DNA from: Escherichia coli | GTDB taxonomy: Bacteria > Pseudomonadota > Gammaproteobacteria > Enterobacterales > Enterobacteriaceae | Length of the DNA stretch: 64,000 bases | Strand: one strand, 5' to 3' | Assembly (NCBI RefSeq): GCF_003334305.1 | Contig: NZ_QOWS01000001.1 | Shown here: piece after piece, positions 3,094 through 44,428 of the stretch | Position numbering within the stretch: the first letter of the stretch is position 1 | Layout of the letters: the number at the start of each line of letters is the position of its first letter | The notes under the pieces: generated by a model | The model's database searches: none | What the model was told of the DNA's origin: nothing | What the model saw: the letters and a program-made list of their open reading frames with translations, nothing else | Translations under genes and position numbers: made by a program

Positions 3094-6000
3094 TTATTCA
3101 AACAGGGCTTCAATATCGTTAATTAGCTCGCTGGCGGTGATGGCATCGAGTACGGAGAACTGCGCTTCCTGTGTTGAATTACTCCCCCAGCCATAGCTTT
3201 CCGCTTTGCCTTCCCATAACCACAGCTTGCTTAAGAGCTGCTCAGCGCTAAGTTCGGCTGGTGACATACCCACCGCAAAACCTTCGTCGATTTCCATGAT
3301 TAACGACCAGCGACCCAAAGGTTTGATCATCCATCCGATCCAGCCTCCATCCTGTGGTTCGCCCTTTATCCAGCCTTTATTCGCCAGCCCCATGACCCGA
3401 CCACTCGGGCATTTTCTGCCTGCCCAGCGGGTCAGTTCACTGGCATTGTGCTCGGCTTCTGTCAGGGCGTAGCTGTTACGGTCGAGCTGGCGGAACGGTG
3501 GTAGCAGTTCGTAGTCGGCAAAAAGCTGACCAAAGGCGGCAGCATCCGTTGGTGATATTTCCAGAACGTGAGGAGTGCCGATAGAGATATCGCCTTCCGG
3601 CAGGGTGAAAAGATCATCGTCAGCGGTGCTGTAGCTGTTATCTTCTGCTACGCGAAAGCAAGCCAGTAGCTGGTTTTCGGCGCTATAAACGCCCCAAATC
3701 AGACGGCGGGTTAAGTGGCGAACCAGCGGATGCTCAACCAGGAAGAGCTGGAAGTTTTCCGGCGACCAGCGGCGGCGCAGGCACATGGCGGATTCCAGCC
3801 TTGCTACCTGCTGGGCGGCGACGGTACGCGCATCTTTTTTCAGCAATTTGTAGCGGTTAACCGCATCGTTCGACCGCGATTCATCATCGCTTTTGTTCGG
3901 TTTGGGCAGGTCTTTCAGGCGGCTGCCGGAAACATCACGCACAAACGGTTTTAAGGTTTCATCAAAGCTGACGGTGAACTGCCGTGGGCCAAAATCCAGC
4001 AGCAGCGAACCGTTATCATCCAGACCGAGATCCGGTGCTAACCGATCTTCAAGCTCCGCCACCGTGAGTTCGCGGCTCTCGGCAATGTCGGCAATTTTTT
4101 CTTTTGCCCGCTCCTGTAATGCTTTGAATTTCAGTTTCTGGGCGATGCCGTTAAGCTGCATAAGGGCGATATCACTACCGATAGCAGCGAGAATATCCAA
4201 CCCAACGGTGGCGCGTTTATGCTGGGATTCACCAGGCCAGGCGCGTATTAATGGCGTCAGTTTGCGGGCGGTGTCATCGTTACCGAGAACGCCTAACGCA
4301 GTGAACGCCCAACTCTCTTTCGACGGCGCGCCAGCGGTCTGCCAGGCGGTAAACAGATCCCAGGCAAATCCCGCCAGTGAGTCGGCGGAACAGACGTCTT
4401 TCACCTGCAATAATCCCGGATACAGAGCCTCTTCCTGAGGGAAGCGGAGCATTTCACCGAGGTGGAGGAGGGCGCTATCTGGCAGTGATTGGGCATTTGC
4501 TTTTAATACCGGGCGCGTCCAGAGCGATGGCTGATAAAAGGCCGGAAGAGTGGGGATTTTTGTCGGGTGATTATCTAAGGGATCGAGCGCAAGCAGAGCG
4601 TTCACCGCATCGGTTACTTCCGGCTGGTTATAACGTCGGGCGATTTCTTGCAGTAATGGCTGATGACCGTTTTCGGTAAGCATACGCAAGGCAGCGCGGG
4701 CGTTATCCTGTGCTTCACCGGCTTTGCCGAGCGCCGCAGGCAGCAGGCCGGTAAGGGCATGTTCCGGGTATTTCAACAGCCAGCTACGGGCGTTTTCGCG
4801 TAGCGTTTTCAGTTTGTTGAAGGCACGGGCGACGGCAGGAGCCAGCTCACTCGCTGCGAAGTAATTCGTGATGGGCAAGGCTTCTTGTGGATAGCGTGCA
4901 AGTGAGTTTACTAACCCAGGTAACCCTTTGAGTCCAAAATGTAACATGGCGTATTCGGTATCGGTATGTGGAGATAGGGTAAGGGCATTCCATGCTTTTA
5001 CTGCTTTCTCCAGCGGCAATGTTGTCAAAATCCCCAACTGCCAATAATGCCCGGTAGGTGAATGAAACACCTTAAATTCACTTAGTAAGGTTGAATAATC
5101 TTCATTTAGCCATGCCTCAACTACCGCTTCGGGAGCTTTAATATATGTACCAGCGATCCGTCGTTGAAAACCCATCCTTGCCAACAGGTTGGTAGTACTT
5201 TCTTCATGGCTAACCGTGATGTGTTTTGAATACCAGATATATTTCGCCAAAAGTTGATTACTGATTTCTTCTGTCAGATAACAGATTGGCTCAATGCCTA
5301 ATGGCGCTAAATCCAGCACCGGAATCGGCGATTTTTTCTTTTTCGAAAGCCAGGGAGGGGAGACTACTACGGCTGGCAGTAGATCGGCGCTGGCATGGTT
5401 TGAGGGCTGTGTCAGTTGTTGCTGGCATGATTTCAGTACGGCAACTGCGGGTGTCGAGAGCCAGGGAATGACCTGTTCTGCCAGTGCTGGTTGTGAGATA
5501 AGCATTGTCATTAGCATAATGCGCCAACTGTTCTCTTCTTTTTGCCCAAGAAGTTCCGTCAGTGCCGCCATTGCTGCATGTGGGAACGCAGCGCAGGCTT
5601 TCGTCATCCGATCGTGACAGCGTTTAGTATGCCCGGCTACACGTATAAGCAGTGTTAATGCGAACGGATGATTGATATGACGCAACACATCGGCGCAGTA
5701 GTCACTTGCGGCATAGGGAGCAAATCGGGGCAGGGCTGCAACACCTTGCTCCTGTAATACGGTGGCTGACCATATCGCACCACAATAGTAATCATCAAAA
5801 ATGGCATATGGCTCGTGATATTTTTCTAATGAGGCAAGAATGTGCTCATCAGTCGCCACTATTTTTAACCACTCAAGCGAGGGTAATTTTTTTTGCCCCA
5901 GTAGACGCTGGGCAATTTCATGTGCAATTTCTGGTTTTTCGGGTAATAACAAAGCAATTAATGGTTGCCGCCATTCTGGAATATGTGGAATTGCGGCAAT

Positions 6001-6888
6001 AAGTTTTTGTGCACATTTTTGCCAGAGAGACTCTTCCGCCAGTGATAAATGTTTACGTAGGCGTAATTCAAATCTGGAATATTGCTCCAAGTAGTCAGGT
6101 GCAATGCCAGACGGCAGAATAATAATGACATTATTCGCATAATCCCATTTAATATCAATCTGTTGAAGGTGTATTATTACATCAGTAGCATATTCCAGAC
6201 CGCCTTCCTGGACGATCTGATCCATAACATCCTCACGCACTTTATATCTTGTGCATTTCATTTCAAGTGCCGTGAGTACAGCCATTACTGGTGATGGTAG
6301 CTGTGTTGTTTTCAGGCCGTCGATCTGACTGATCGCCTGGGCGACGGTGTTTTGCCATTCTAAAGAACAGGCGCTGAAGTCAAATGTGGCTGTTTTATTA
6401 TCCCGTTGCGACACACTACAGGCTAAGCGACGTAATTGGGTCAATTTGTCTGCTTGCTGAACAGGAACTCCGGGAAAGCGGCGATGACTTAACGTGGTGT
6501 GTACAACTTCGGGCGGAAAAACGACAGCAATATCTTTCGCCAGCCACGGTAAAACAGCATCTGTATTTTTGTCAGGCGCACGGGTTTCTGCTACGAAAGA
6601 GGGTTGTTCCTGAATAATGGTGGATAAGTCCGCTACCTTGAGAGAGCCCGTTACCGTTTGGGAAGGTTGCAAAGAATTATCCTTCGCTTGCTCCACATAC
6701 CCCTTCTTCACCTTCTCCGCAATCAGCTTAAGCTCCGCTTTTGCCGCTGCCGCAGCATCTGAAAAACTTTTTATCTGGCTTTGCCCTTTGGTGCCAACTT
6801 TTCCCCAACTGATATGCAACTCGTTTCCCTGTTGCTCAACTGCCCAGAATTTATGTGATTTTTCGTCCTGATAGATAAAGTGTCTCAT
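3094..6888 (-). CDS. molR: WGR-domain + DUF4132 protein (MolR-like), 1264 aa, apparently intact
   Basis: Single 1264-aa ORF; N-terminus MRHFIYQDEKSHKFWAVEQQGNELHISWGKVG resembles a WGR domain; sits immediately downstream of metG on the same strand. Confidence 0.65.
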   Translation of the reverse strand: MRHFIYQDEKSHKFWAVEQQGNELHISWGKVGTKGQSQIKSFSDAAAAAKAELKLIAEKVKKGYVEQAKDNSLQPSQTVTGSLKVADLSTIIQEQPSFVAETRAPDKNTDAVLPWLAKDIAVVFPPEVVHTTLSHRRFPGVPVQQADKLTQLRRLACSVSQRDNKTATFDFSACSLEWQNTVAQAISQIDGLKTTQLPSPVMAVLTALEMKCTRYKVREDVMDQIVQEGGLEYATDVIIHLQQIDIKWDYANNVIIILPSGIAPDYLEQYSRFELRLRKHLSLAEESLWQKCAQKLIAAIPHIPEWRQPLIALLLPEKPEIAHEIAQRLLGQKKLPSLEWLKIVATDEHILASLEKYHEPYAIFDDYYCGAIWSATVLQEQGVAALPRFAPYAASDYCADVLRHINHPFALTLLIRVAGHTKRCHDRMTKACAAFPHAAMAALTELLGQKEENSWRIMLMTMLISQPALAEQVIPWLSTPAVAVLKSCQQQLTQPSNHASADLLPAVVVSPPWLSKKKKSPIPVLDLAPLGIEPICYLTEEISNQLLAKYIWYSKHITVSHEESTTNLLARMGFQRRIAGTYIKAPEAVVEAWLNEDYSTLLSEFKVFHSPTGHYWQLGILTTLPLEKAVKAWNALTLSPHTDTEYAMLHFGLKGLPGLVNSLARYPQEALPITNYFAASELAPAVARAFNKLKTLRENARSWLLKYPEHALTGLLPAALGKAGEAQDNARAALRMLTENGHQPLLQEIARRYNQPEVTDAVNALLALDPLDNHPTKIPTLPAFYQPSLWTRPVLKANAQSLPDSALLHLGEMLRFPQEEALYPGLLQVKDVCSADSLAGFAWDLFTAWQTAGAPSKESWAFTALGVLGNDDTARKLTPLIRAWPGESQHKRATVGLDILAAIGSDIALMQLNGIAQKLKFKALQERAKEKIADIAESRELTVAELEDRLAPDLGLDDNGSLLLDFGPRQFTVSFDETLKPFVRDVSGSRLKDLPKPNKSDDESRSNDAVNRYKLLKKDARTVAAQQVARLESAMCLRRRWSPENFQLFLVEHPLVRHLTRRLIWGVYSAENQLLACFRVAEDNSYSTADDDLFTLPEGDISIGTPHVLEISPTDAAAFGQLFADYELLPPFRQLDRNSYALTEAEHNASELTRWAGRKCPSGRVMGLANKGWIKGEPQDGGWIGWMIKPLGRWSLIMEIDEGFAVGMSPAELSAEQLLSKLWLWEGKAESYGWGSNSTQEAQFSVLDAITASELINDIEALFE

Positions 6889-10847: not shown

Positions 10848-10879
10848 TTTGGCAACCTGATTTTAATTGCATTTAGAAA

Positions 10880-10916
10880 GCCGAAATCATTTATATAAAT
10901 GATTTCGGCTTTTTTA
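10880..10916 (+). terminator. Rho-independent terminator
   Basis: GCCGAAATCATT-loop-AATGATTTCGGC stem followed by a T6 run. Confidence 0.7.
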
Positions 10917-11139
10917 TTGATATCAACAATACCATTTACATAAATCTACATTAATTGATAGATGCGATAAATAGTTAATACTCTTAAATATTTGCTGTAT
11001 TTATATTGCAATGGTTAATTTGTTTTAAATCAATAAAACAATGTGTTTACATTGCGGCAACTTTTTTGATGTGAGAAATTTGTTTCCAAGAGATACAGAC
11101 TCTTAACAACCAAAAATAAATTTTATTAAGGAACATATT

Positions 11140-11682
11140 ATGAAACGTTCAATTATTGCTGCCGCTGTCTTTTCTTCTTTTTTTATGAGCGCTGGAGTAT
11201 TTGCTGCAGACGTTGATACCGGAACATTAACTATTAAGGGGAATATTGCAGAATCTCCGTGTAAATTCGAAGCGGGTGGTGATTCAGTAAGTATTAATAT
11301 GCCGACTGTACCAACCACTGTCTTTGAAAGTAAAGCTAAATATTCTACCTATGATGATGCAGTCGGTGTAACCAGCAGCATGTTAAAAATTAGCTGCCCG
11401 AAAGAAGTTGCTGGTGTAAAACTCTCGTTGATTACCAACGATAAAATAACCGGTAACGATAAGGCGATAGCCAGTAGCAACGATACCGTGGGTTACTATC
11501 TCTATTTAGGTGATAACAGCGATGTCCTGGATGTTTCTGCACCTTTTAACATTGAGAGTTATAAAACAGCGGAAGGTCAATATGCTATTCCGTTTAAAGC
11601 AAAATACCTGAAACTGACAGATAACTCAGTGCAATCAGGTGATGTGTTATCTTCTCTGGTTATGCGTGTGGCGCAGGATTAA
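11140..11682 (+). CDS. yehD: Fimbrial major subunit (chaperone-usher pathway)
   Basis: 180 aa, signal peptide MKRSIIAAAVFSSFFMSAGVFA, fimbrial-subunit-like composition; first gene of a subunit-chaperone-usher-adhesin cluster. Confidence 0.8.
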   Translation: MKRSIIAAAVFSSFFMSAGVFAADVDTGTLTIKGNIAESPCKFEAGGDSVSINMPTVPTTVFESKAKYSTYDDAVGVTSSMLKISCPKEVAGVKLSLITNDKITGNDKAIASSNDTVGYYLYLGDNSDVLDVSAPFNIESYKTAEGQYAIPFKAKYLKLTDNSVQSGDVLSSLVMRVAQD

Positions 11683-24798: not shown

Positions 24799-25851
24799 AT
24801 GACAGATATTGCGCAGTTGCTTGGCAAAGACGCCGACAACCTTTTACAGCACCGTTGTATGACAATTCCTTCTGACCAGCTTTATCTCCCCGGACATGAC
24901 TACGTAGACCGCGTAATGATTGACAATAATCGCCCGCCAGCGGTGTTACGTAATATGCAGACGTTGTACAACACCGGGCGTCTGGCTGGCACAGGATATC
25001 TTTCTATTCTGCCGGTTGACCAGGGCGTTGAGCACTCTGCCGGAGCTTCATTTGCTGCTAACCCGCTCTACTTTGACCCGAAAAACATTGTTGAACTGGC
25101 GATCGAAGCGGGCTGTAACTGTGTGGCGTCAACTTACGGCGTGCTGGCGTCGGTATCGCGGCGTTATGCGCATCGCATTCCATTCCTCGTCAAACTTAAT
25201 CACAACGAGACGCTAAGTTACCCGAATACCTACGATCAAACGCTGTATGCCAGCGTGGAGCAGGCGTTCAACATGGGCGCGGTTGCGGTTGGTGCGACTA
25301 TCTATTTTGGCTCGGAAGAGTCACGTCGCCAGATTGAAGAAATTTCTGCGGCTTTTGAACGTGCGCACGAGCTGGGTATGGTGACAGTGCTGTGGGCCTA
25401 TTTGCGTAACTCCGCCTTTAAGAAAGATGGCGTTGATTACCATGTTTCCGCCGACCTGACCGGTCAGGCAAACCATCTGGCGGCAACCATCGGTGCAGAT
25501 ATCGTCAAACAAAAAATGGCGGAAAATAACGGCGGCTATAAAGCAATTAATTACGGTTATACCGACGATCGCGTGTACAGCAAGTTAACCAGCGAAAACC
25601 CGATTGATCTGGTGCGTTATCAGTTAGCTAACTGCTATATGGGGCGCGCAGGGCTGATTAACTCCGGCGGTGCTGCAGGCGGTGAAACTGACCTCAGTGA
25701 TGCAGTGCGTACTGCGGTTATCAACAAACGCGCTGGCGGAATGGGGCTGATTCTTGGACGTAAGGCGTTCAAGAAATCGATGGCTGACGGCGTGAAACTG
25801 ATTAATGCCGTGCAGGACGTTTATCTCGATAGCAAAATTACTATTGCCTGA
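24799..25851 (+). CDS. fbaB: Class I fructose-bisphosphate aldolase
   Basis: 350 aa from [18 protein letters not shown], preceded by GGGAG. Confidence 0.9.
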
Positions 25852-25878
25852 TACGCCTCATACGAACAGCACCACCCC

Positions 25879-25992
25879 GTAGGACGGATAAGGCGTTTAC
25901 ACTGCATCCGGCAACCTATGCCTGATGCGACGCGGAAGCGTCTTATCATGCCTACATAGCACTGCCACGTATGTTTACACCGCATCCGGCAT
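25879..25992. repeat. Cluster of REP-like palindromic units (BIME-like)
   Basis: Three copies of the (G)CCGGATAAGGCG...TACA...GCATCCGGCA-type REP consensus in alternating orientation. Confidence 0.75.
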
Positions 25993-26013
25993 AAAAACAC
26001 GCGCACTTTGCTA

Positions 26014-26043
26014 CGGCTTCCCTATCGGGAGGCCGTTTTTTTT
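26014..26043 (+). terminator. Rho-independent terminator-like hairpin with T8 run
   Basis: CGGCTTCCC-TATC-GGGAGGCCG followed by TTTTTTTT. Confidence 0.65.
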
Positions 26044-26105
26044 GCCTTTTACTCCTCGAACAATTTTCACATTGTCGTTTTTGTGATCGTTATCTCGACA
26101 TTTAA

Positions 26106-27030
<925 letters not shown>

Positions 27031-27031
27031 T

Positions 27032-28305
<1,274 letters not shown>

Positions 28306-28314
28306 GGACGGTAT

Positions 28315-28767
28315 ATGACTAACCTGTTTGTTCGTAGCGGAATTTCTTTTGTCGATCGTAGCGAAGTTTTAACCCATATCGGTAATGAGATGCTCGCGAA
28401 AGGTGTGGTTTATGATACCTGGCCACAGGCATTAATTGCCAGAGAAGCAGAATTCCCTACCGGGATAATGCTTGAGCAGCACGCCATTGCTATACCGCAT
28501 TGTGAGGCGATTCATGCTAAGTCGTCAGCCATTTATCTGTTAAGGCCAACAAATAAAGTTCATTTTCAGCAAGCGGATGATGATAACGACGTGGAGGTGT
28601 CGTTGGTTATTGCGTTGATTGTGGAAAATCCGCAGCAGCAATTGAAACTTTTACGCTGTTTATTTGGCAAGTTACAACAGCCCGATATCGTCGAGACACT
28701 AATCACTCTTCCTGAAACCCAGTTAAAGGAATACTTCACAAAGTATGTTTTAGATTCAGACGAATAA
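28315..28767 (+). CDS. gatA: Galactitol PTS enzyme IIA
   Basis: 150 aa; operon position. Confidence 0.88.
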   Translation: MTNLFVRSGISFVDRSEVLTHIGNEMLAKGVVYDTWPQALIAREAEFPTGIMLEQHAIAIPHCEAIHAKSSAIYLLRPTNKVHFQQADDDNDVEVSLVIALIVENPQQQLKLLRCLFGKLQQPDIVETLITLPETQLKEYFTKYVLDSDE

Positions 28768-28797
28768 ATCCCTCTGTAACAATAAAAAGGACTATTT

Positions 28798-29082
28798 ATG
28801 AAACGCAAGATTATTGTCGCTTGCGGAGGCGCGGTTGCGACCTCTACGATGGCGGCGGAAGAAATTAAAGAGTTGTGTCAGAGTCATAATATTCCTGTTG
28901 AATTAATCCAGTGTCGGGTTAATGAAATAGAAACCTATATGGATGGTGTGCATTTGATATGTACCACTGCCAGGGTGGATCGCAGTTTTGGCGATATTCC
29001 GTTAGTTCACGGCATGCCTTTTGTTTCTGGTGTCGGTATCGAAGCATTACAAAATAAAATTCTGACTATCTTACAGGGGTGA
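28798..29082 (+). CDS. gatB: Galactitol PTS enzyme IIB
   Basis: 94 aa, [27 protein letters not shown]. Confidence 0.88.
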
Positions 29083-29085
29083 CCT

Positions 29086-30441
29086 ATGTTTTCAGAAGTC
29101 ATGCGTTATATTCTCGACCTCGGCCCTACAGTGATGCTGCCGGTTGTCATCATTATTTTTTCTAAAATATTAGGCATGAAGGCAGGCGATTGCTTTAAAG
29201 CGGGTCTGCATATCGGGATTGGCTTTGTTGGCATTGGCCTTGTGATTGGCTTAATGCTGGATTCCATTGGTCCGGCGGCGAAAGCGATGGCGGAAAATTT
29301 CGACCTGAATCTGCATGTGGTCGATGTCGGCTGGCCGGGCTCTTCACCAATGACCTGGGCGTCGCAAATTGCGCTGGTGGCGATTCCGATTGCGATATTG
29401 GTTAACGTGGCGATGTTACTGACCCGTATGACGCGGGTGGTAAATGTTGATATCTGGAATATCTGGCATATGACCTTCACCGGCGCGTTGCTGCACCTGG
29501 CAACCGGTTCATGGATGATAGGGATGGCAGGTGTGGTAATTCACGCGGCGTTTGTTTATAAGCTCGGCGACTGGTTTGCCCGCGATACCCGAAATTTCTT
29601 TGAGCTGGAAGGTATTGCTATTCCGCACGGTACGTCGGCGTATATGGGGCCGATTGCGGTGCTGGTCGATGCTATCATCGAGAAAATCCCAGGCGTTAAC
29701 CGAATTAAATTTAGCGCCGACGATATTCAGCGCAAATTTGGTCCATTTGGCGAGCCTGTCACCGTGGGTTTTGTGATGGGGCTGATTATCGGCATCCTCG
29801 CGGGTTACGATGTCAAAGGTGTATTGCAGCTGGCGGTAAAAACGGCGGCAGTGATGCTGCTAATGCCACGGGTGATTAAACCCATCATGGATGGTTTAAC
29901 GCCCATCGCTAAGCAGGCCCGTAGTCGTTTACAGGCGAAGTTCGGCGGTCAGGAGTTCCTGATTGGCCTGGATCCCGCATTACTGCTGGGGCATACGGCG
30001 GTGGTATCGGCAAGCCTGATTTTTATCCCGCTCACCATTTTAATTGCTGTTTGTGTTCCGGGTAATCAGGTGCTGCCGTTTGGCGATCTTGCCACCATCG
30101 GCTTCTTTGTGGCGATGGCAGTCGCCGTGCATCGTGGAAATCTGTTCCGCACCTTAATCTCGGGTGTCATCATCATGAGCATCACTCTGTGGATCGCGAC
30201 GCAAACTATTGGTTTGCACACCCAACTGGCGGCTAATGCTGGGGCGTTAAAAGCCGGGGGTATGGTGGCTTCAATGGATCAGGGCGGTTCTCCCATTACC
30301 TGGTTACTGATTCAGGTTTTCTCCCCGCAAAATATTCCCGGATTCATTATTATCGGCGCAATTTATCTTACCGGTATTTTCATGACCTGGCGTAGAGCGC
30401 GTGGCTTTATTAAACAAGAGAAAGTCGTTCTCGCAGAATAA
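29086..30441 (+). CDS. gatC: Galactitol PTS enzyme IIC (membrane)
   Basis: 451 aa, polytopic hydrophobic profile. Confidence 0.9.
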   Translation: MFSEVMRYILDLGPTVMLPVVIIIFSKILGMKAGDCFKAGLHIGIGFVGIGLVIGLMLDSIGPAAKAMAENFDLNLHVVDVGWPGSSPMTWASQIALVAIPIAILVNVAMLLTRMTRVVNVDIWNIWHMTFTGALLHLATGSWMIGMAGVVIHAAFVYKLGDWFARDTRNFFELEGIAIPHGTSAYMGPIAVLVDAIIEKIPGVNRIKFSADDIQRKFGPFGEPVTVGFVMGLIIGILAGYDVKGVLQLAVKTAAVMLLMPRVIKPIMDGLTPIAKQARSRLQAKFGGQEFLIGLDPALLLGHTAVVSASLIFIPLTILIAVCVPGNQVLPFGDLATIGFFVAMAVAVHRGNLFRTLISGVIIMSITLWIATQTIGLHTQLAANAGALKAGGMVASMDQGGSPITWLLIQVFSPQNIPGFIIIGAIYLTGIFMTWRRARGFIKQEKVVLAE

Positions 30442-30488
30442 TTTTTACCTGAGGGGGAGGTTATCCCCCTTAACAATCAGGAGTTTTT

Positions 30489-31529
30489 ATGAAATCAGTG
30501 GTGAATGATACTGATGGTATCGTGCGCGTTGCAGAAAGCGTCATTCCTGAAATTAAACATCAGGATGAGGTGCGGGTAAAAATTGCCAGCTCGGGCTTAT
30601 GTGGTTCCGATTTACCCAGGATATTTAAAAATGGTGCACATTATTATCCAATAACGTTAGGCCATGAATTTAGCGGCTATATTGATGCGGTGGGATCCGG
30701 TGTTGATGATTTACATCCTGGCGATGCGGTTGCCTGTGTGCCGTTATTACCCTGTTTTACTTGTCCAGAGTGTTTGAAAGGGTTTTATTCCCAGTGCGCA
30801 AAATATGATTTTATTGGCTCACGGCGTGATGGTGGATTTGCCGAATATATTGTCGTTAAGCGGAAAAATGTCTTTGCTCTACCTACTGATATGCCTATTG
30901 AGGATGGGGCTTTTATTGAACCGATTACCGTTGGCTTGCATGCTTTTCATTTAGCGCAAGGTTGTGAGAATAAAAACGTTATTATTATTGGTGCCGGAAC
31001 CATTGGCCTGCTGGCCATTCAGTGCGCTGTCGCGCTGGGAGCAAAGAGTGTGACGGCGATCGACATTAGTTCAGAAAAACTGGCACTGGCAAAATCTTTC
31101 GGTGCGATGCAAACATTTAACAGTAGCGAAATGAGCGCGCCGCAAATGCAGAGCGTTTTACGCGAACTGCGCTTTAATCAGCTTATCCTCGAGACGGCTG
31201 GCGTACCGCAAACTGTCGAACTGGCGGTAGAGATTGCCGGTCCTCATGCCCAACTGGCGCTGGTGGGCACGTTGCATCAGGATCTGCATTTAACATCGGC
31301 AACGTTTGGCAAAATATTGCGTAAAGAGCTGACGGTTATCGGCAGTTGGATGAACTACTCCAGCCCTTGGCCGGGGCAGGAGTGGGAAACGGCGAGCCGG
31401 TTGCTGACAGAACGTAAGTTAAGCCTGGAGCCATTAATCGCTCACCGTGGAAGCTTTGAAAGCTTCGCCCAGGCGGTGCGTGACATCGCTCGTAATGCTA
31501 TGCCGGGCAAAGTGTTGCTCATTCCCTGA
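30489..31529 (+). CDS. gatD: Galactitol-1-phosphate 5-dehydrogenase (Zn-dependent MDR family)
   Basis: 346 aa; CGSD and GHEFSG zinc-ADH motifs; GAGTIG NAD fold. Confidence 0.9.
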   Translation: MKSVVNDTDGIVRVAESVIPEIKHQDEVRVKIASSGLCGSDLPRIFKNGAHYYPITLGHEFSGYIDAVGSGVDDLHPGDAVACVPLLPCFTCPECLKGFYSQCAKYDFIGSRRDGGFAEYIVVKRKNVFALPTDMPIEDGAFIEPITVGLHAFHLAQGCENKNVIIIGAGTIGLLAIQCAVALGAKSVTAIDISSEKLALAKSFGAMQTFNSSEMSAPQMQSVLRELRFNQLILETAGVPQTVELAVEIAGPHAQLALVGTLHQDLHLTSATFGKILRKELTVIGSWMNYSSPWPGQEWETASRLLTERKLSLEPLIAHRGSFESFAQAVRDIARNAMPGKVLLIP

Positions 31530-31628
31530 AACCGCGGGCCAGCGTGATGCTGGCCCGGTATTGTGCAAAACAGATCATTCACCAATGGTCCCCCTTCGTT
31601 TACACTAGCCACAATTGAATATGGGTAA

Positions 31629-32408
31629 ATGACGATGAATTCATTCGAGCGAAGGAATAAGATCATCCAATTAGTGAATGAACAGGGAACCGTGCTTGTT
31701 CAGGATCTGGCGGGAGTATTTGCTGCCTCGGAAGCGACAATCCGTGCCGATTTGCGCTTTCTCGAACAAAAAGGCGTGGTTACGCGCTTTCATGGCGGTG
31801 CGGCGAAAATAATGTCCGGTAATAGTGAAACCGAGACCCAGGAAGTCGGGTTTAAAGAGCGATTTCAGCTCGCCAGCGCGCCGAAAAACAGAATAGCGCA
31901 GGCGGCAGTCAAAATGATCCATGAAGGGATGACCGTTATTCTCGACAGCGGAAGTACCACAATGCTTATCGCCGAAGGATTAATGACCGCCAAAAATATC
32001 ACGGTGATTACCAACAGTCTCCCGGCTGCGTTTGCCCTTTCCGAAAATAAAGACATTACTCTGGTCGTCTGCGGTGGCACGGTCCGCCATAAAACGCGAT
32101 CTATGCATGGATCTATTGCTGAACGTTCCCTGCAGGATATTAATGCCGATTTAATGTTTGTCGGTGCTGATGGTATTGATGCGGTTAATGGTATTACGAC
32201 CTTTAATGAAGGTTATTCGATTAGCGGTGCGATGGTCACCGCCGCTAATAAAGTGATTGCCGTTCTCGATTCATCGAAATTTAACCGTCGCGGTTTTAAT
32301 CAGGTACTGCCAATCGAAAAAATTGACATTATTATTACCGATGATGCTGTATCAGAGGTGGATAAACTGGCATTGCAGAAGACACGGGTAAAATTAATTA
32401 CGGTGTAG
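31629..32408 (+). CDS. gatR: DeoR-family repressor of the galactitol operon, uninterrupted
   Basis: 259-aa continuous ORF with N-terminal HTH (RRNKIIQLVNEQGTVLVQDLAGVFAASEATIRADLRFLE) and C-terminal DeoR sugar-binding-like region. Confidence 0.85.
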   Translation: MTMNSFERRNKIIQLVNEQGTVLVQDLAGVFAASEATIRADLRFLEQKGVVTRFHGGAAKIMSGNSETETQEVGFKERFQLASAPKNRIAQAAVKMIHEGMTVILDSGSTTMLIAEGLMTAKNITVITNSLPAAFALSENKDITLVVCGGTVRHKTRSMHGSIAERSLQDINADLMFVGADGIDAVNGITTFNEGYSISGAMVTAANKVIAVLDSSKFNRRGFNQVLPIEKIDIIITDDAVSEVDKLALQKTRVKLITV

Positions 32409-32421
32409 TATTGTTCTGTAT

Positions 32422-32451
32422 GCCGGATAAGGTATTTACACCGCATCCGGC
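32422..32451. repeat. REP element
   Basis: GCCGGATAAGGTATTTACACCGCATCCGGCA palindromic unit between gatR and yegS. Confidence 0.75.
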
Positions 32452-32489
32452 ATTTCGGATTCTCCCTGGTTCAAGAGAGAATAGTTTGA

Positions 32490-33389
32490 TTAACGCAATA
32501 ATGGACAATCTGGTGGTAATCGACAACGCAACGCCGCCGGAAGTATTTCAATATGAAAGTTTTGTCCGCTCAACGGTTCGCCATCAAGATTAAAAGTGAT
32601 TTCGTGTGGGGCTTGTATATCAAACCACGACGAAGCGCCTTCGATAATATTCGGGTTATCTTCGTCAGATTTTAAGGTTGATACGAGAGCCGGAAGAATT
32701 TCATCGCCGGTAAAAATGCGCAGTTGCAGCAAGCCATCGTTAATTAACGCGTTCGGACACAATTGCTGACCGCCACCGGCCTGACGCCCGTTACCAATAC
32801 CAATGACCAGGGCGTCACCTTGCCAGTGAAAGTTTTCACCGCGGATTTCACAACGGTCCGGTTGCAGAGTATCCATGCGCATTAAGCCATGAATGATGTA
32901 AGAGACGCCACCCAGCGCGGCTTTTAATTTTTCCGGCGTTTCTGTGGTAATACGCGTCCCAAATCCGCCTGTCGCCATATTAATAAAACAGGTTTGTTTG
33001 TTGACCTGCGCCATATCTATCGCAATGGCGTTACCGGCAATTGCCAGTTTCAGCGCCTTATCCAGTGCCTCAGGAATCCCTACACTGGTGGCAAAATCAT
33101 TGGCGGTTCCTAATGGCAAAATTCCCAGCGCGGGTATGTCATCCCCCTCACACTGAATCAACGCCGTAGAAACTTCATTAATGGTGCCATCGCCACCACC
33201 GGCAATCACCGTTGCGACGCCCAACTTCCGGGCCTCCTCTACATATCGTGCGGCATCGCCTTTCTCCCAGGTGACCCGCACATGGATCGTCATTCCTTCC
33301 TCACGCAACAGCATAATTGCTTCGCGCAAGGGTAGATTGTCAGTACTTTTGCCATTAAGAATCAGTAAGCTGGCGGGAAATTCTGCCAT
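32490..33389 (-). CDS. yegS: Lipid kinase (DAGK-catalytic-domain family)
   Basis: 299 aa; GGDGT motif ([13 protein letters not shown]). Confidence 0.9.
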
Positions 33390-34279: not shown

Positions 34280-34306
34280 AAAAAATAAGCCCGTGTAAGG
34301 GAGATT
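34280..34306. mobile_element. P2-type att core (attL) at the prophage left junction
   Basis: AAAAAATAAGCCCGTGTAAGGGAGATT matches my recollection of the 27-bp P2 attachment core; lies about 80 bp outside the int stop. Confidence 0.75.
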
Positions 34307-34385: not shown

Positions 34386-35399
34386 TTACTCTACTGTGGA
34401 CACTGTGTGGACACTCTCGGCCTCAGTACCACCTCTTAGCGGATTAAGAGAAATGGCGTCCTGAAGGTACTCTGGCGCAAAATGAGCGTAAACCATAGTT
34501 TGCTCAATCCGCGTGTGACCTAGTATCCGTTGTAGCGTGATAATACTTCCTCCATTAATCATGAAATGAGTGGCAAAGCTGTGCCTTAGTGCATGTGTGG
34601 CTTGCCCCATTGGCAAATCCGGTTTTATTGCTTTCATTGTTCGTCTGAAGCGAGGGTAATCAGCATCAGGGAATAAAAAACCTCGTTTGTTATCCGCGAT
34701 CATTTTGGCAACAGCCTCTGAGATCGGGACGGTGCGTGGTTTGTTTGTTTTCGTTTTAACAAACGTGACGCGGTTATGGATGATATTTTCTGCTTTCAAA
34801 CGAGCTGCTTCTCCCCAACGTGCTCCTGTACTCAGGCAAAGAATCGCAATCTTTTTATTGTCGCCGTCAAGTGCTGCAAGCAGTAAGGCAATTTCTTCCT
34901 GTGTTAGATAGCCTGTTTCTGGTTTTTCCTCCTTAAGCCTTTTTGTCCCTCTGATAGGGTGCTCACCAAAGAATAACTCCGCTTCAATCAGGGCTGTAAA
35001 CATGCCGCTAATACATGTTAAATCACGATTGATACTCGAAGGTTTAATACCCTGACTTCTTCGGGTGGCGCAGTACTGGCTGATAAGCGATTTCGTAATT
35101 TGAAATGCGCATGGGTCATTCGTTATTTTTGTGAAGATTTCAATTTTTCCAAGATTAGATTTCCCATGCTCTTCGTGTTTACCCTTTAAATCCCACCAGA
35201 TCTGTGTCAGCTCCGACAGACGTCGCTTGTCTGTTGGTTTTGATAGCCATTCTTTATTGTGGTGGTTGTACAACGTGTATTTCTCGAAAGCGACAGCTTC
35301 GCTTTTCTTATCAAACTTCCTACGGATGCGTTTTCCATTACGTCCAGTAGGGCGGATGTCCACTTCATATCGACCATCATCGAGTTTTTTGATTGCCAT
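34386..35399 (-). CDS. int: P2-like prophage integrase (tyrosine recombinase)
   Basis: 337 aa; C-terminal HALRHSFATHF...LGHTRIEQTMVYAHF catalytic box. Confidence 0.92.
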   Translation of the reverse strand: MAIKKLDDGRYEVDIRPTGRNGKRIRRKFDKKSEAVAFEKYTLYNHHNKEWLSKPTDKRRLSELTQIWWDLKGKHEEHGKSNLGKIEIFTKITNDPCAFQITKSLISQYCATRRSQGIKPSSINRDLTCISGMFTALIEAELFFGEHPIRGTKRLKEEKPETGYLTQEEIALLLAALDGDNKKIAILCLSTGARWGEAARLKAENIIHNRVTFVKTKTNKPRTVPISEAVAKMIADNKRGFLFPDADYPRFRRTMKAIKPDLPMGQATHALRHSFATHFMINGGSIITLQRILGHTRIEQTMVYAHFAPEYLQDAISLNPLRGGTEAESVHTVSTVE

Positions 35400-37696: not shown

Positions 37697-37968
37697 GTAT
37701 TCGTATTGAAATTGGCGAACGTTATGTCGTTACCAGTGACAGCTTTCAGTTTATTCTCCACGAGAAAAAGAGAGCGGAAAGCGGTAAAAACGCCGGTCAG
37801 GAATGGCTGGCGGTGGTTGGTTATTACCCGAAATTAAGCCAGCTCGTTTCAGGCCTGATGCATCACGATATTCTGACCGGAAGCGCAAAGTCTTTTGCTG
37901 ATTTAAACGTGCAGGTTGAGCAACTCAGCAAGCGTTGTTCAGAGGCTTTTGGCTCATATGGCCGTTAA
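37693..37968 (+). CDS. Small early protein (P2 orf83-like)
   Basis: 91-aa ORF overlapping the start of A. Confidence 0.5.
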   Translation: MSIRIEIGERYVVTSDSFQFILHEKKRAESGKNAGQEWLAVVGYYPKLSQLVSGLMHHDILTGSAKSFADLNVQVEQLSKRCSEAFGSYGR

Positions 37969-40243
37969 AGCCTCCGGGCGTTTTGTCCCTCCGTCAGCAT
38001 TTGCCGCAGGCACCGGTAAGATGTTTACCGGTGCTTATGCATGGAACGCGCCACGCGAGGCCGTCGGGCGCGAAAGACCCCTTACACGTGACGAGATGCG
38101 TCAGATGCAAGGTGTTTTATCCACGATTAACCGCCTGCCTTACTTTTTGCGCTCGCTGTTTACTTCACGCTATGACTACATCCGGCGCAATAAAAGCCCG
38201 GTGCACGGGTTTTATTTCCTCACATCCACTTTTCAGCGTCGTTTATGGCCGCGCATTGAGCGTGTGAATCAGCGCCATGAAATGAACACCGACGCGTCGT
38301 TGCTGTTTCTGGCAGAGCGTGACCACTATGCGCGCCTGCCGGGAATGAATGACAAGGAGCTGAAAAAGTTTGCCGCCCGTATCTCATCGCAGCTTTTCAT
38401 GATGTATGAGGAACTCAGCGATGCCTGGGTGGATGCACATGGCGAAAAAGAATCGCTGTTTACGGATGAGGCGCAGGCTCACCTCTATGGTCATGTTGCT
38501 GGCGCTGCACGTGCTTTCAATATTTCCCCGCTTTACTGGAAAAAATACCGTAAAGGACAGATGACCACGAGGCAGGCATATTCTGCCATTGCCCGTCTGT
38601 TTAACGATGAGTGGTGGACTCATCAGCTCAAAGGCCAGCGTATGCGCTGGCATGAGGCGTTACTGATTGCTGTCGGGGAGGTGAATAAAGACCGTTCTCC
38701 TTATGCCAGTAAACATGCCATTCGTGATGTGCGTGCACGCCGCCAGGCAAATCTGGAATTTCTTAAATCGTGTGACCTTGAAAACAGGGAAACCGGCGAG
38801 CGCATCGACCTTATCAGTAAGGTGATGGGCAGTATTTCTAATCCTGAAATTCGCCGGATGGAGCTGATGAACACCATTGCCGGTATTGAGCGTTACGCCG
38901 CCGCAGAGGGTGATGTGGGGATGTTTATCACGCTTACCGCGCCTTCAAAGTATCACCCGACACGTCAGGTCGGAAAAGGCGAAAGTAAAACCGTCCAGCT
39001 AAATCACGGCTGGAACGATGAGGCATTTAATCCAAAGGATGCGCAGCGTTATCTCTGCCATATCTGGAGCCTGATGCGCACGGCATTCAAAGATAATGAT
39101 TTACAGGTCTACGGTTTGCGTGTCGTCGAGCCACACCACGACGGAACGCCGCACTGGCATATGATGCTTTTTTGTAATCCACGCCAGCGTAACCAGATTA
39201 TCGAAATCATGCGTCGCTATGCGCTCAAAGAGGATGGCGACGAAAGAGGAGCCGCGCGAAACCGTTTTCAGGCAAAACACCTTAACCAGGGCGGTGCTGC
39301 GGGGTATATCGCGAAATACATCTCAAAAAACATCGATGGCTATGCACTGGATGGTCAGCTCGATAACGATACCGGCAGACCGCTGAAAGACACTGCTGCG
39401 GCTGTTACCGCATGGGCGTCAACGTGGCGCATCCCACAATTTAAAACGGTTGGTCTGCCGACAATGGGGGCTTACCGTGAACTACGCAAATTGCCTCGCG
39501 GCGTCAGCATTGCTGATGAGTTTGACGAGCGCGTCGAGGCTGCACGCGCCGCCGCAGACAGTGGTGATTTTGCGTTGTATATCAGCGCGCAGGGTGGGGC
39601 AAATGTCCCGCGCGATTGTCAGACTGTCAGGGTCGCCCGTAGTCCGTCGGATGAAGTTAACGAGTACGAGGAAGAAGTCGAGAGAGTGGTCGGCATTTAC
39701 GCGCCGCATCTCGGCGCGCGTCATATTCATATCACCAGAACGACGGACTGGCGCATTGTGCCGAAAGTTCCGGTCGTTGAGCCTCTGACTTTAAAAAGCG
39801 GCATCGCCGCGCCTCGGAGTCCTGTCAATAACTGTGGAAAGCTCACCGGTGGTGATACTTCGTTACCGGCTCCCACACCTTCTGAACACGCCGCAGCAGT
39901 GCTTAATCTGGTTGATGACGGTGTTATCGAATGGAATGACCCGGAGGTCGTGAGGGCGCTCAGGGGCGCATTAAAATACGGGCTGAGAACACCAAATCGT
40001 CAGCAGAGAAACGGAAGCCCGTTAAAACCACATGAAATTGCACCATCGGCCAGACTGACCCGGTCGGAAAGAATGCAAATTACCCGTATCCGCGTTGACC
40101 TTGCTCAGAACGGTATCAGGCCGCAGCGATGGGAGCTTGAGGCGCTGGCGCGTGGCGCGACCGTAAATTATGACGGGAAAAAATTCACGTATCCGGTCGC
40201 TGATGAGTGGCCGGGATTCTCAACAGTAATGGCGCGGATATAA
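37958..40243 (+). CDS. A: P2-like replication initiation endonuclease A (rolling-circle)
   Basis: About 761 aa from MAVKASGRF; HxH-type motif TPHWHMMLF and tyrosine pair GYIAKYISK. Confidence 0.9.
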   Translation: MAVKASGRFVPPSAFAAGTGKMFTGAYAWNAPREAVGRERPLTRDEMRQMQGVLSTINRLPYFLRSLFTSRYDYIRRNKSPVHGFYFLTSTFQRRLWPRIERVNQRHEMNTDASLLFLAERDHYARLPGMNDKELKKFAARISSQLFMMYEELSDAWVDAHGEKESLFTDEAQAHLYGHVAGAARAFNISPLYWKKYRKGQMTTRQAYSAIARLFNDEWWTHQLKGQRMRWHEALLIAVGEVNKDRSPYASKHAIRDVRARRQANLEFLKSCDLENRETGERIDLISKVMGSISNPEIRRMELMNTIAGIERYAAAEGDVGMFITLTAPSKYHPTRQVGKGESKTVQLNHGWNDEAFNPKDAQRYLCHIWSLMRTAFKDNDLQVYGLRVVEPHHDGTPHWHMMLFCNPRQRNQIIEIMRRYALKEDGDERGAARNRFQAKHLNQGGAAGYIAKYISKNIDGYALDGQLDNDTGRPLKDTAAAVTAWASTWRIPQFKTVGLPTMGAYRELRKLPRGVSIADEFDERVEAARAAADSGDFALYISAQGGANVPRDCQTVRVARSPSDEVNEYEEEVERVVGIYAPHLGARHIHITRTTDWRIVPKVPVVEPLTLKSGIAAPRSPVNNCGKLTGGDTSLPAPTPSEHAAAVLNLVDDGVIEWNDPEVVRALRGALKYGLRTPNRQQRNGSPLKPHEIAPSARLTRSERMQITRIRVDLAQNGIRPQRWELEALARGATVNYDGKKFTYPVADEWPGFSTVMARI

Positions 40244-40599
40244 TGACAAAGATTCACAAAGTAAAGCTGCACGCAAGATATTTCAACCTTGTGCTGGAGG
40301 AAAAAGAAACGCACAGAATTTAGGGGGATAGCCGTTATCATGTGTATGAAGCACTTGAAATGTATCTGCATCACTTGGGAGTGTGTCAACGGGGAATTTC
40401 CATCTATGTGATTTTTTGAGAGCAATGCAGTGAAGATAAAGATACTTATTATAAATCAATGTGATAGATGGTGCCTCGCAAACGTAAATGATAGTTTTGA
40501 AGCTTCAGGGCTGATGTCGTTCATAAGACTATGTTTACGCTATCATTTATGATAAAAATAATTAATTTTTATCATAAAGATTCAACAGAGGATATGTTG

Positions 40600-42105
40600 A
40601 TGAATCAACTAAAATCAATGAATATCAATAAGTTACTTTTGGATGTTGATAACCCTCGTTTCCCGACGTCAGCAGAAAATCAGCGTGATGCTATTGCCAA
40701 GATGCTTGACTTGCAGTACGACCGCATTTATCGCTTGGCTAAAGATATTGCTTCGAAAGGTTTAGATCCGTCTGAAAACATATTAGTTTATCCTAGTGAA
40801 GAGGAATCTGGCTTTTTCGTCGTTGCTGAAGGTAATCGTCGAGTTACAGCCCTTAAACTTTTACACTCTCCTAGACTTGCACCAACAGAAAAAGCACGGA
40901 AAGCTTTTGAAAAACTTAAGATTACTCAGCTTAAAGATATTAATGTTATAGATAACTGCGTTCTTTTTGACGATGATGAATATGAGCATTGGGTCAATTT
41001 AAAGCATACTGGTCAAAATGCTGGAGTTGGAAGAGTTGAATGGACTGCAACAGAAAAAGCACGACATCTGGCTAGGATGGGTAAGCAGTCATTTGGTAAT
41101 CAAATACTTACATTTATAGAGTTCAATACTGATTTATATAAAGAGATAATTGCTAAAAAAAGACTTTTAAAAATCACAAACATCACGCGTCTTTTTGGTG
41201 ATTTAAAGGTGAGGGATTATTTTAATTTAAAAAGCATTAATGGAGTTCTATACTCATATCAGCCTTATGAACGTTTTTGTGCACAATTAAAAAATATTTT
41301 AGATGTAATGATTGAAGAGGATGATAAAGGTAAGGCTTGTTTTACTGTTAATAGGATTCGTAGCCAAGATGACAGGGTTACATTTATTATTGAACAAAAA
41401 ATAAAACCTTCAGAATCTCTTTTAGATAAGCCGTGGAGTTTATTAGAGCCTAAATCTTTTCTTACAGAGAAAAAACATGATTCTATTGACAAAAATGATG
41501 CATCTGTGAGTGTAAAGAAAGCAGGTCTTTCAGAAGGTGATGCCTTAAAGAATACAGGTGTGGATAAACAGGAAGATGATTATTCTAGACATGTAGGCAC
41601 AGAAGAGAGTAAATCTAAAGTTTCGGGTACGGAACAGAATAAAAACAAGGGAAAAACTCCTCCTAAAGTAGATCGTAATGTGTTGGTGCCATCTTATGTG
41701 AAATTTAATTTTAGAGGGCATAAGAAATGCTCTAGAATATTTAATGAGCTTAAGTCGCATCTGACATTTGATAACACCCCTAATGCTATCTCAATATTGT
41801 TGAGAATATTTATAGATCTCTCTGTAAGCACTTTTGTTGAAGAAAACAAGTTACAATTTAAGGAACCACATAGAACTCCAGGGCTTCATGATAAGGTTAA
41901 AATGTGTGCTAATTTCCTTCGGGAAAATAAAAAGATGACGGGGAGTCAATGTACGGCTGTAATAACTTTCTCGAGCCAAATAACTAAACATGATGGTTCA
42001 TTGCAGCAGTATGTACATAACCCACACTTAATTCCCTCAAAAGAGGCTGTCAACACTGAGTGGGATAACTTTGAGTTGTTATTAAGCCTTATTTGGAGTG
42101 AGTGA
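40600..42105 (+). CDS. ParB/Srx-fold domain protein with disordered Lys/Ser/Glu-rich linker and uncharacterised C-terminal domain (cargo gene 1)
   Basis: ORF 40531-42105 (524 aa); likely start at 40600 (GAGGA seven nt upstream). N-terminus has DVDNPRF and VVAEGNRRVTALKLL, matching ParB box motifs; conspicuously AT-rich against the flanking phage genes. Confidence 0.7.
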   Translation: MNQLKSMNINKLLLDVDNPRFPTSAENQRDAIAKMLDLQYDRIYRLAKDIASKGLDPSENILVYPSEEESGFFVVAEGNRRVTALKLLHSPRLAPTEKARKAFEKLKITQLKDINVIDNCVLFDDDEYEHWVNLKHTGQNAGVGRVEWTATEKARHLARMGKQSFGNQILTFIEFNTDLYKEIIAKKRLLKITNITRLFGDLKVRDYFNLKSINGVLYSYQPYERFCAQLKNILDVMIEEDDKGKACFTVNRIRSQDDRVTFIIEQKIKPSESLLDKPWSLLEPKSFLTEKKHDSIDKNDASVSVKKAGLSEGDALKNTGVDKQEDDYSRHVGTEESKSKVSGTEQNKNKGKTPPKVDRNVLVPSYVKFNFRGHKKCSRIFNELKSHLTFDNTPNAISILLRIFIDLSVSTFVEENKLQFKEPHRTPGLHDKVKMCANFLRENKKMTGSQCTAVITFSSQITKHDGSLQQYVHNPHLIPSKEAVNTEWDNFELLLSLIWSE

Positions 42106-42174
42106 GATTTGTCTACATCTGGACATGGATGTCCAGAAACTGATAAACTACAAAATCAGGAATGAGAGGGATTT

Positions 42175-43059
42175 ATGAAATTTTATACTCCATTAAGATA
42201 CCCCGGCGGGAAAGGTAAGTTATCTTACTTTTTAAAAGATGTTATTGAAAAAAACTCGTTGAATGATGGAGCATATGCAGAACCTTACGCTGGTGGTGCA
42301 GGGGTGGCTTTAGAATTATTATTGGAAGAGTATGTCCGTAAAATCTATATAAATGATGCAGATTTTGCTGTTTATTCTTTTTGGTCATCTGTTGTTAGTG
42401 ATACTGATGAGCTTTGCCGACTTATTAGCCGAGCAAAGATAGATATGGATGAATGGTCTTTTCATCGCTATGTTATTTCGAATCCTTCTGAGTTTACTAA
42501 GCTTGAGGTTGGCTTTGCTGCGTTTTTCTTAAATAGAACAAATCGTTCAGGTATTCTCAAGGCGGGGGTTATAGGCGGGAAATCACAAAATGGAAAATGG
42601 AAAATGGATGTTCGCTTTAACAGGGCGGATTTAATTTCAAGAATTGAGAAGATAGCAAATTATAATCAAAGAATAGTAGTAACTAATCTGGATGCTTTGG
42701 ATTTTCTTGATGTCTTGAATTTTATGGATAATATGGGAAAGGTGGATAAAAATAAAATTCTTTTGTATTTGGATCCTCCTTACTATATTAAAGGGCAAGG
42801 GCTTTACAGGAATTTTTATGAGCATGATGATCATGTATTGGTTATGAAGAAACTCACAGAAATTAATTTCCCAAATTGGCTTGTTTCTTATGATAACGCT
42901 AAGGAAATTAAAGATATTTATAATGGATTTCCGCAAGTTGAGTATTCATTGCAATATACAGCGCATCTCAAAAAATCTGGAGAGGAAGTGATGATTTTTT
43001 CTCCTGAAATAATTATTCCTAATACCCTGAAAGGGGGCTCAATGCCAACTTGCGCCTGA
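42175..43059 (+). CDS. Dam-family (D12 class) N6-adenine DNA methyltransferase (cargo gene 2)
   Basis: 294 aa; motifs collinear with E. coli Dam: YPGGKGK (Dam WAGGK), EPYAGGAGV (Dam EPFVGAGSV), FFLNRTNRSG (Dam LYLNRYGYNG) and DPPYY (residues about 200-204); AT-rich. Confidence 0.85.
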   Translation: MKFYTPLRYPGGKGKLSYFLKDVIEKNSLNDGAYAEPYAGGAGVALELLLEEYVRKIYINDADFAVYSFWSSVVSDTDELCRLISRAKIDMDEWSFHRYVISNPSEFTKLEVGFAAFFLNRTNRSGILKAGVIGGKSQNGKWKMDVRFNRADLISRIEKIANYNQRIVVTNLDALDFLDVLNFMDNMGKVDKNKILLYLDPPYYIKGQGLYRNFYEHDDHVLVMKKLTEINFPNWLVSYDNAKEIKDIYNGFPQVEYSLQYTAHLKKSGEEVMIFSPEIIIPNTLKGGSMPTCA

Positions 43060-43393: not shown

Positions 43394-44428
43394 TCAGCCG
43401 TTGTCAGTGTCCAGTGAGTAGTTTTTAAAGCGGATGACCTCCTGACCGAGCCAGCCGTTTATCTCGCGGATCCTGTCCTGTAACGGGATAAGCTCATTGC
43501 GGACAAAGACCTTTGCCACTTTCTCAATATCACCCAGCGACCCGACGTTCTCCGGCTTGCCCCCCATCAACTGAAAGGGGATGCGGTGCGCGTCCAGCAG
43601 GTCAGTGGCGCTGGCTTTTTTGATATTAAAAAAATCGTCCTTCGTCGCTACTTCACTGAGGGGGATAATTTTAATGCCGTCAGCTTTCCCCTGTGGCGCA
43701 TAGAGAAACAGATTTTTAAAGTTGTTGCGGCCTTTCGACTTAACCATGTTTTCGCGAAGCATTTCGATATCGTTGCGATCCTGCACGGCATCGGTGACGT
43801 ACATGATGTATCCGGCATGGGCGCCATTTTCGTAATACTTGCGGCGGAACAGCGTGGCCGACTCATTCAGCCAGGCAGAGTTAAGGGCGCTGAGATATTC
43901 CGGCAGGCCGTACAGCTCCTGATTAATATCCGGCTCCAGCAGGTGAAACACGGAGCCGGGCGCGAAAGGTGTCGGCTCATGGAAGGACGGCACCCACCAG
44001 TAAACATCCTCTTCCACGCCACGGCGGGTATATTTTGCCGGTGAGGTTTCCAGTCTGATGACCTTACCGGTGGTGCTGTAACGCTTTTCCAGAAACGCAT
44101 TACCGAACACCAGAAAATCCAGCACAAAGCGGCTGAAATCCTGCTGGGAAAGCCACGGATGCGGAATAAACGTTGAAGCCAGAATATTGCGTTTAACGTA
44201 AATCGGCGAGCTGTGATGCACGGCAGCACGCAGGCTTTTTGCCAGACCGGTAAAGCTGACCGGCGGCTCATACCATCTGCCGTTACTGATGCACTCGACG
44301 TAATCCAGAATGTCACGGCGGTCGAGTACCGGCACCGGCTCGCCAAAGGTGAATGCCTCCATTTTCGGGGCGCTGGCGGTCATTGTTTTTGCCGCAGGTT
44401 GCGGTGTTTTCCCTTTTTTCTTGCTCAT
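43394..44428 (-). CDS. Q: Portal protein
   Basis: 344 aa, P2 gpQ length and position. Confidence 0.9.
   Translation of the reverse strand: MSKKKGKTPQPAAKTMTASAPKMEAFTFGEPVPVLDRRDILDYVECISNGRWYEPPVSFTGLAKSLRAAVHHSSPIYVKRNILASTFIPHPWLSQQDFSRFVLDFLVFGNAFLEKRYSTTGKVIRLETSPAKYTRRGVEEDVYWWVPSFHEPTPFAPGSVFHLLEPDINQELYGLPEYLSALNSAWLNESATLFRRKYYENGAHAGYIMYVTDAVQDRNDIEMLRENMVKSKGRNNFKNLFLYAPQGKADGIKIIPLSEVATKDDFFNIKKASATDLLDAHRIPFQLMGGKPENVGSLGDIEKVAKVFVRNELIPLQDRIREINGWLGQEVIRFKNYSLDTDNG

Follow-up and report, generated by a model that had tools for sequence, protein, structure and literature searches.

The open reading frame at positions 31629-32408 (plus strand) of the window, a stretch of 64,000 nucleotides of Escherichia coli DNA (contig NZ_QOWS01000001.1), is, with a probability of roughly 0.9, the wild-type gene of a functional GatR, a repressor of the DeoR/GlpR family that governs gatYZABCD, the operon for the PTS uptake and the catabolism of galactitol (dulcitol). 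The frame occupies the position of gatR, it is intact, it contains both domains of the family and its product is identical, amino acid for amino acid, to an allele of proven regulatory activity. It is an ordinary gene, already known, and there is no novelty in it. With an intact gatR in a natural isolate the galactitol operon should be switched on and off in the normal way, and little weight is attached to this beyond a correct annotation. The earliest description of GatR, of the IS3E insertion that disrupts it in MG1655 and of the resulting constitutive gat expression is reportedly that of Nobelmann and Lengeler (1996). All three are repeatedly cited in gut-evolution studies (PMC5850726 among them).

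The coding sequence starts with ATG, encodes 259 amino acids and is closed by a TAG stop at 32406-32408. In the RefSeq/PGAP annotation the start is placed at ATG 31635, two codons downstream of 31629, giving a protein of 257 residues (WP_001295426.1). The Shine-Dalgarno-like bases upstream of the gene consist only of GGG at 31623-31625, whose spacing suits the start at 31635 better than that at 31629, and in public databases the 257-aa and the 259-aa forms are each found on at least 1000 contigs, under names which include “DeoR family galactitol utilization operon repressor”. Both domains required for membership of the DeoR/GlpR family are present: an N-terminal DNA-binding HTH_DeoR domain (Pfam PF08220, 31650-31808 on the plus strand, residues 8-60 of the 259-aa form, E 2.9e-16) and a C-terminal effector-binding DeoRC sensor domain (Pfam PF00455, 31881-32342 on the plus strand, residues 85-238, E 4.1e-51), so that a chance open reading frame can be dismissed. 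Among solved structures, the C-terminal domain of E. coli DeoR (7L6L, E 1.9e-11) comes nearest in sequence, with an alignment spanning GatR residues 83-254 in the numbering of the 257-aa form. No transposase or insertion sequence (IS) was found inside 31629-32408, and against thousands of E. coli genomes the 780 bases can be aligned end to end without a break. The uninterrupted DeoR-family frame of 259 residues without an IS, as described in the first-pass annotation, is thus borne out by the list of open reading frames, by the Pfam domains and by the genome alignments.

The gene differs in this respect from its counterpart in K-12 MG1655, where the same gene at the same locus (b4498) is annotated as two fragments of 299 nt and 475 nt around an IS3E element of 1258 bp (record positions 2170171-2171428). 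The junctions read ...GGGATGAC/TGATCC... and ...GATCA/GAC/CGTTATT..., with a 3-bp target duplication, GAC. According to the MG1655 annotation and these junctions the target triplet lies uninterrupted in the window at 31931-31933 (plus strand) and the insertion point falls after 31933, at codon 100 of the 257-aa form and at the start of the sensor domain; in MG1655 the HTH is thereby separated from the sensor, whereas the window gene is free of any insertion. When the two fragments are joined, with IS3E and one copy of GAC removed, a frame of 774 nt is restored, the product of which is identical to the 257-aa GatR of the window, and all 20 nucleotide differences between the rebuilt K-12 gene and the window gene are synonymous. 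The alignment to the K-12 flanks, proposed as a check when the gene was first noted, gave an identical gatD-gatR spacer, with the K-12 copy broken by IS3E and the window copy continuous. Constitutive gat expression of MG1655 has been attributed to the IS insertion in gatR by several papers (PMC3045373, bioRxiv 10.64898/2026.01.05.697630 and PMC5850726 among them), and the statement in the first-pass annotation that K-12 gatR is interrupted by an IS, with constitutive gat, is right for MG1655, in whose record IS3E is present. In one passage of PMC5850726 the element in MG1655 gatR is given as IS1; the genome record of MG1655 shows IS3E. A separate case is BL21(DE3), where the same gene (NC_012971.2, 2067983-2069538; 97.5% nucleotide identity to the window) is broken by IS1A, in contrast to the intact copy of the window; it is an independent knockout in a second laboratory lineage, B.

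Functional evidence for the window allele comes from E. coli HS. On direct translation the 257 residues of the window GatR and of the GatR of HS (WP_001295426.1) agree without exception (0 differences, 100% identity), which gives the window protein the sequence of an allele whose repressor activity has been demonstrated by experiment; the same single RefSeq accession is common to HS, E2863, A7 and NCM3722. It was reported by Sousa et al. (PMC5850726) that replacement of the MG1655 pseudogene by the HS gatR restored regulation of the gat operon, and that in mice fresh IS insertions in this HS-derived gatR rendered the operon of MG1655 constitutive again. When gatR was silenced by CRISPRi in LF82 and CFT073, two natural isolates, a strong effect on fitness was seen in the mouse gut, and the authors read this as de-repression of gat (bioRxiv 10.64898/2026.01.05.697630). 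The flanking genes and the gatD-gatR spacer of HS are likewise the same as in the window; the differences between the two are 20 synonymous nucleotides within gatR and, in the gatY promoter region, 4 bases and one T-run of unequal length. Between the window and LF82 there are 10 nucleotide differences in gatR, one of them non-synonymous and conservative (I196V). The substitution pattern (20 synonymous and 0 non-synonymous changes against K-12 and HS, 10 changes including 1 non-synonymous against LF82) points to purifying selection on gatR.

The first-pass annotation had also concluded, from the intact gatR, that the strain is not a K-12 derivative. The conclusion stands and the reasoning does not. 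The window strain is not K-12: over 34.3 kb the window shows 535 mismatches and 5 gaps to K-12 NCM3722 (98.40% identity), homology to K-12 stops at window position 34297, where a P2-like prophage starts, and NCM3722 carries there the ogrK/D P2 remnant instead. Neither of the two marks of the K-12 lineage, near-identical DNA at the locus and a P2 remnant between yegR and yegQ, was found in the window. By contrast, E. coli A7 from orangutan faeces (NZ_CP028767.1) matches the window over 49.8 kb with 0 mismatches and 3 single gaps. An origin from a dulcitol-negative STEC of the O26 type was also considered and was rejected in view of this match to A7. The gatR of NCM3722 (extracted locus 10852-11625), however, is uninterrupted, its product, WP_001295426.1, is that of the window as well, and in the genome paper of that strain the disruption of gatR is ascribed to MG1655 only (PMC3045373). 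The IS3E insertion is consequently not general to K-12 strains, and a useful correction follows, namely that an intact gatR cannot mark a strain as “not K-12”.

An intact gatR is the rule in E. coli and the insertion-broken copy of MG1655 is the exception. A match to gatR was found in 5110 of 5426 complete E. coli genomes and was absent from 316, and in 4757 of the 5426 (88%, a slight overestimate, as pieces up to about 890 bp apart were joined in counting, which lets in BL21(DE3) with its IS1-interrupted gatR) no less than 80% of the gene lies in one place. With about 88% of complete genomes carrying gatR in one piece, the broken gene of MG1655 has to be regarded as an oddity. In about 350 genomes gatR is split into two places, and those listed are of the K-12 type, with the break at query base 303.

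The structural genes under the presumed control of GatR are also in order. All of them lie on the plus strand and are intact: gatY (26160-27014, 284 aa), gatZ (27043-28305, 420 aa), gatA (28315-28767, 150 aa), gatB (28798-29082, 94 aa), gatC (29086-30441, 451 aa) and gatD (30489-31529, 346 aa). Throughout 26160-31529 each gene has a single terminal stop and the expected length, with few substitutions in comparison to K-12, HS or LF82, and each exact protein, GatY, GatZ, GatA, GatB, GatC and GatD, is found on at least 1000 contigs. The gatC of the window measures 1356 nt, whereas that of MG1655 (extracted locus 4922-6279) measures 1358 nt, is frameshifted and is a pseudogene in the reference record; this is a second lesion of the gat locus in the reference K-12 and is absent from the window. 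The spacer between gatD and gatR comprises 99 nt, and its sequence is the same in the window, MG1655 and HS. Close behind the gatD stop it holds a GC-rich hairpin (31535-31557, plus strand) with a 9-bp stem, a 5-nt loop and no T-run (RNA fold -21.1 kcal/mol, z = -2.9), which may act as a partial terminator or as an RNA-stability element between gatD and gatR.

It can be said that the gat operon of the window strain should be repressible. This had been proposed as probable from the first reading of the DNA and it is well supported as an expectation, since GatR is identical to the regulating HS allele and the six structural genes are intact and of common alleles. It is kept at the level of an expectation by two circumstances, namely that in the literature searched neither mapped GatR operators nor a demonstrated inducer were found, the effector being given as a prediction, and that the gatY promoter carries four to five substitutions in comparison to K-12/HS. 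From the protein and its surroundings we infer repression in the window strain, the likely place of the operator and the likely kind of inducer ligand, as follows. The N-terminal winged helix-turn-helix of GatR would bind operator DNA at the gatY promoter and block transcription; galactitol would enter the cell through the GatABC PTS and be phosphorylated in the process; one of the phosphorylated intermediates of the pathway would then bind the DeoRC domain, and the repressor would be released. Candidate inducers are galactitol-1-phosphate, tagatose-6-phosphate and tagatose-1,6-bisphosphate, the three compounds among which the GatR effector has been predicted from topology (PMC5540944).

The alternative which survives best does not touch the gene itself. 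It assumes that the structural genes and the regulator are intact and that regulated galactitol use is nevertheless missing, the strain being phenotypically galactitol-negative in standard conditions or failing to de-repress. It draws on a mismatch of frequencies, as about 60% of E. coli are dulcitol-positive within 2 days according to the passage of the Manual of Clinical Microbiology quoted in PMC10132054, against about 88% of genomes with an uninterrupted gatR. In addition, LF82 and CFT073 were reported to be without de-repression in vivo (bioRxiv 10.64898/2026.01.05.697630), and the galactitol plates of PMC5850726 were incubated at 30 C. Nevertheless, the six structural genes of the window are full length and represent conservative, common alleles, from which no defect is predicted, and such a phenotype would in any case be compatible with a functional repressor. 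This alternative is considered unlikely, and the normally regulated operon remains the preferred reading.

The region presumed to be the target of GatR, the gatY promoter/operator region at 26037-26159 (plus strand), is less conserved than the gatD-gatR spacer. A single promoter-like pair is found upstream of gatY, TCGACA at 26095-26100 and CATTAT at 26119-26124, separated by an 18-nt spacer; the call is a weak one, since in a scan of 25700-32700 shuffled controls gave more sites than the real sequence (11.4 promoters vs 8, and 9.1 terminators vs 5). In the same scan, which did not rise above chance, no promoter specific to gatR was detected. The palindrome ATTTCA-N8-TGAAAT at 26115-26134 overlaps the -10 hexamer, its 6-bp arms are unchanged in all five aligned strains, and it is put forward as a candidate operator only. 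Another candidate was the 8-nt inverted repeat TGTCGTTT/AAACGACA (26073-26080 and 26142-26149), the sole inverted repeat obtained from the repeat search upstream of gatY, and it was rejected as an operator because its arms vary, one in E2863 and one in LF82. Further upstream, the fbaB-gatY spacer holds REP-like palindromic units, and a block of 78 bp at 25895-25972 (alignment columns 44-121) is missing in LF82. The terminator hairpin of fbaB lies at 26013-26036, and its T-run ranges from 7 to 9 T between strains, that of the window being one T longer than in K-12/HS.

Upstream of gatY the window differs from both K-12 and HS by T at 26050, C at 26070, C at 26099 and C at 26114, and at 26061 it differs from MG1655 alone, not from HS. 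It could be argued that such substitutions in cis weaken the binding of GatR or shift the strength of the promoter, leaving the operon leaky or constitutive in spite of an intact gatR: the change at 26099 turns the -35-like TCGATA into TCGACA, nearer to the consensus, and 26114 abuts the palindrome overlapping the -10 hexamer. However, of the 5426 complete E. coli genomes 1209 combine an intact gatR with this haplotype (99% identity or more), and with such a frequency it has to be taken as a common natural allele; C 26099 is also present in LF82, where gatR clearly represses, and the arms of the palindrome are conserved. Loss of control in cis is accordingly judged very improbable, and a repressible operon under GatR is still preferred. 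A milder effect, in which this haplotype, shared with about one fifth of complete E. coli genomes, would give a basal level of gat or an induction threshold different from that of K-12/HS, is improbable as well; the bases invoked are C 26070, C 26099 with its better -35-like hexamer and C 26114, which adjoins the palindrome overlapping the -10 hexamer. If true, it would represent natural cis-regulatory variation in a locus known for strong selection in the gut.

The name of the gene is based on its position and on sequence identity, since there is no curated NCBIfam model for GatR; an equivalog model of this kind does not exist. The ORF map, NCBIfam and the annotation of identical DNA in E2863 and A7 place gatR directly downstream of gatD, on the strand shared with gatYZABCD and convergent with yegS. 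The upstream neighbour (30489-31529, plus strand, 346 aa) is matched by NCBIfam as GatD galactitol-1-phosphate 5-dehydrogenase with 729 bits (cut-off 550) and the downstream neighbour (32490-33389, minus strand, 299 aa) as lipid kinase YegS with 492 bits (cut-off 284). The annotated genomes of E2863, LF82, HS, A7 and NCM3722 share this order, fbaB-gatYZABCD-gatR and then yegS in the reverse orientation. AgaR, SrlR and DeoR, the E. coli sugar repressors of the DeoR/GlpR family, have the same HTH_DeoR and DeoRC architecture as GatR but control different operons, and GatR scores under the curated cut-off of each of these families. That the frame encodes another sugar repressor of the DeoR family, an AgaR- or SrlR-like paralogue, is effectively refuted, because the scores that suggest it, the best NCBIfam matches to AgaR (NF040755, 232.9 bits) and SrlR (226.3 bits), both miss their cut-offs (260 and 350 bits, respectively), which marks AgaR and SrlR as paralogues of GatR, while the gene stands at the gatR position, its protein is identical to the GatR annotated as fragments in MG1655, and databases call it the galactitol operon repressor.

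Apart from the gat locus, a P2-like prophage occupies 34298-64000 of the window, directly after yegR; a 24.7-kb query is covered to 80% by phage P2, with an identity of 97.6%. The integrase of the prophage lies at 34386-35399 on the minus strand. At this site K-12 has a remnant only, consisting of a late control D fragment and ogrK. Two cargo genes within 40531-43059, flanked by the P2 replication gene A (37916-40243) on one side and the portal gene on the other, match the anti-phage system PD-Lambda-5: subunit A (40531-42105, E 5.9e-168), whose function is given as unknown by PHROGs, and subunit B (42175-43059, E 2.6e-121), a Dam-like type II methyltransferase. The P2 portal gene (43394-44428, minus strand) is a continuous frame of 344 aa in the window, and it is frameshifted in the RefSeq record of A7 (extracted locus 41797-42830). 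As the window and A7 differ only by the three single-base gaps, one of these probably accounts for the frameshift of the A7 portal gene, and the difference may stem from a mistake in the assembly of either genome.
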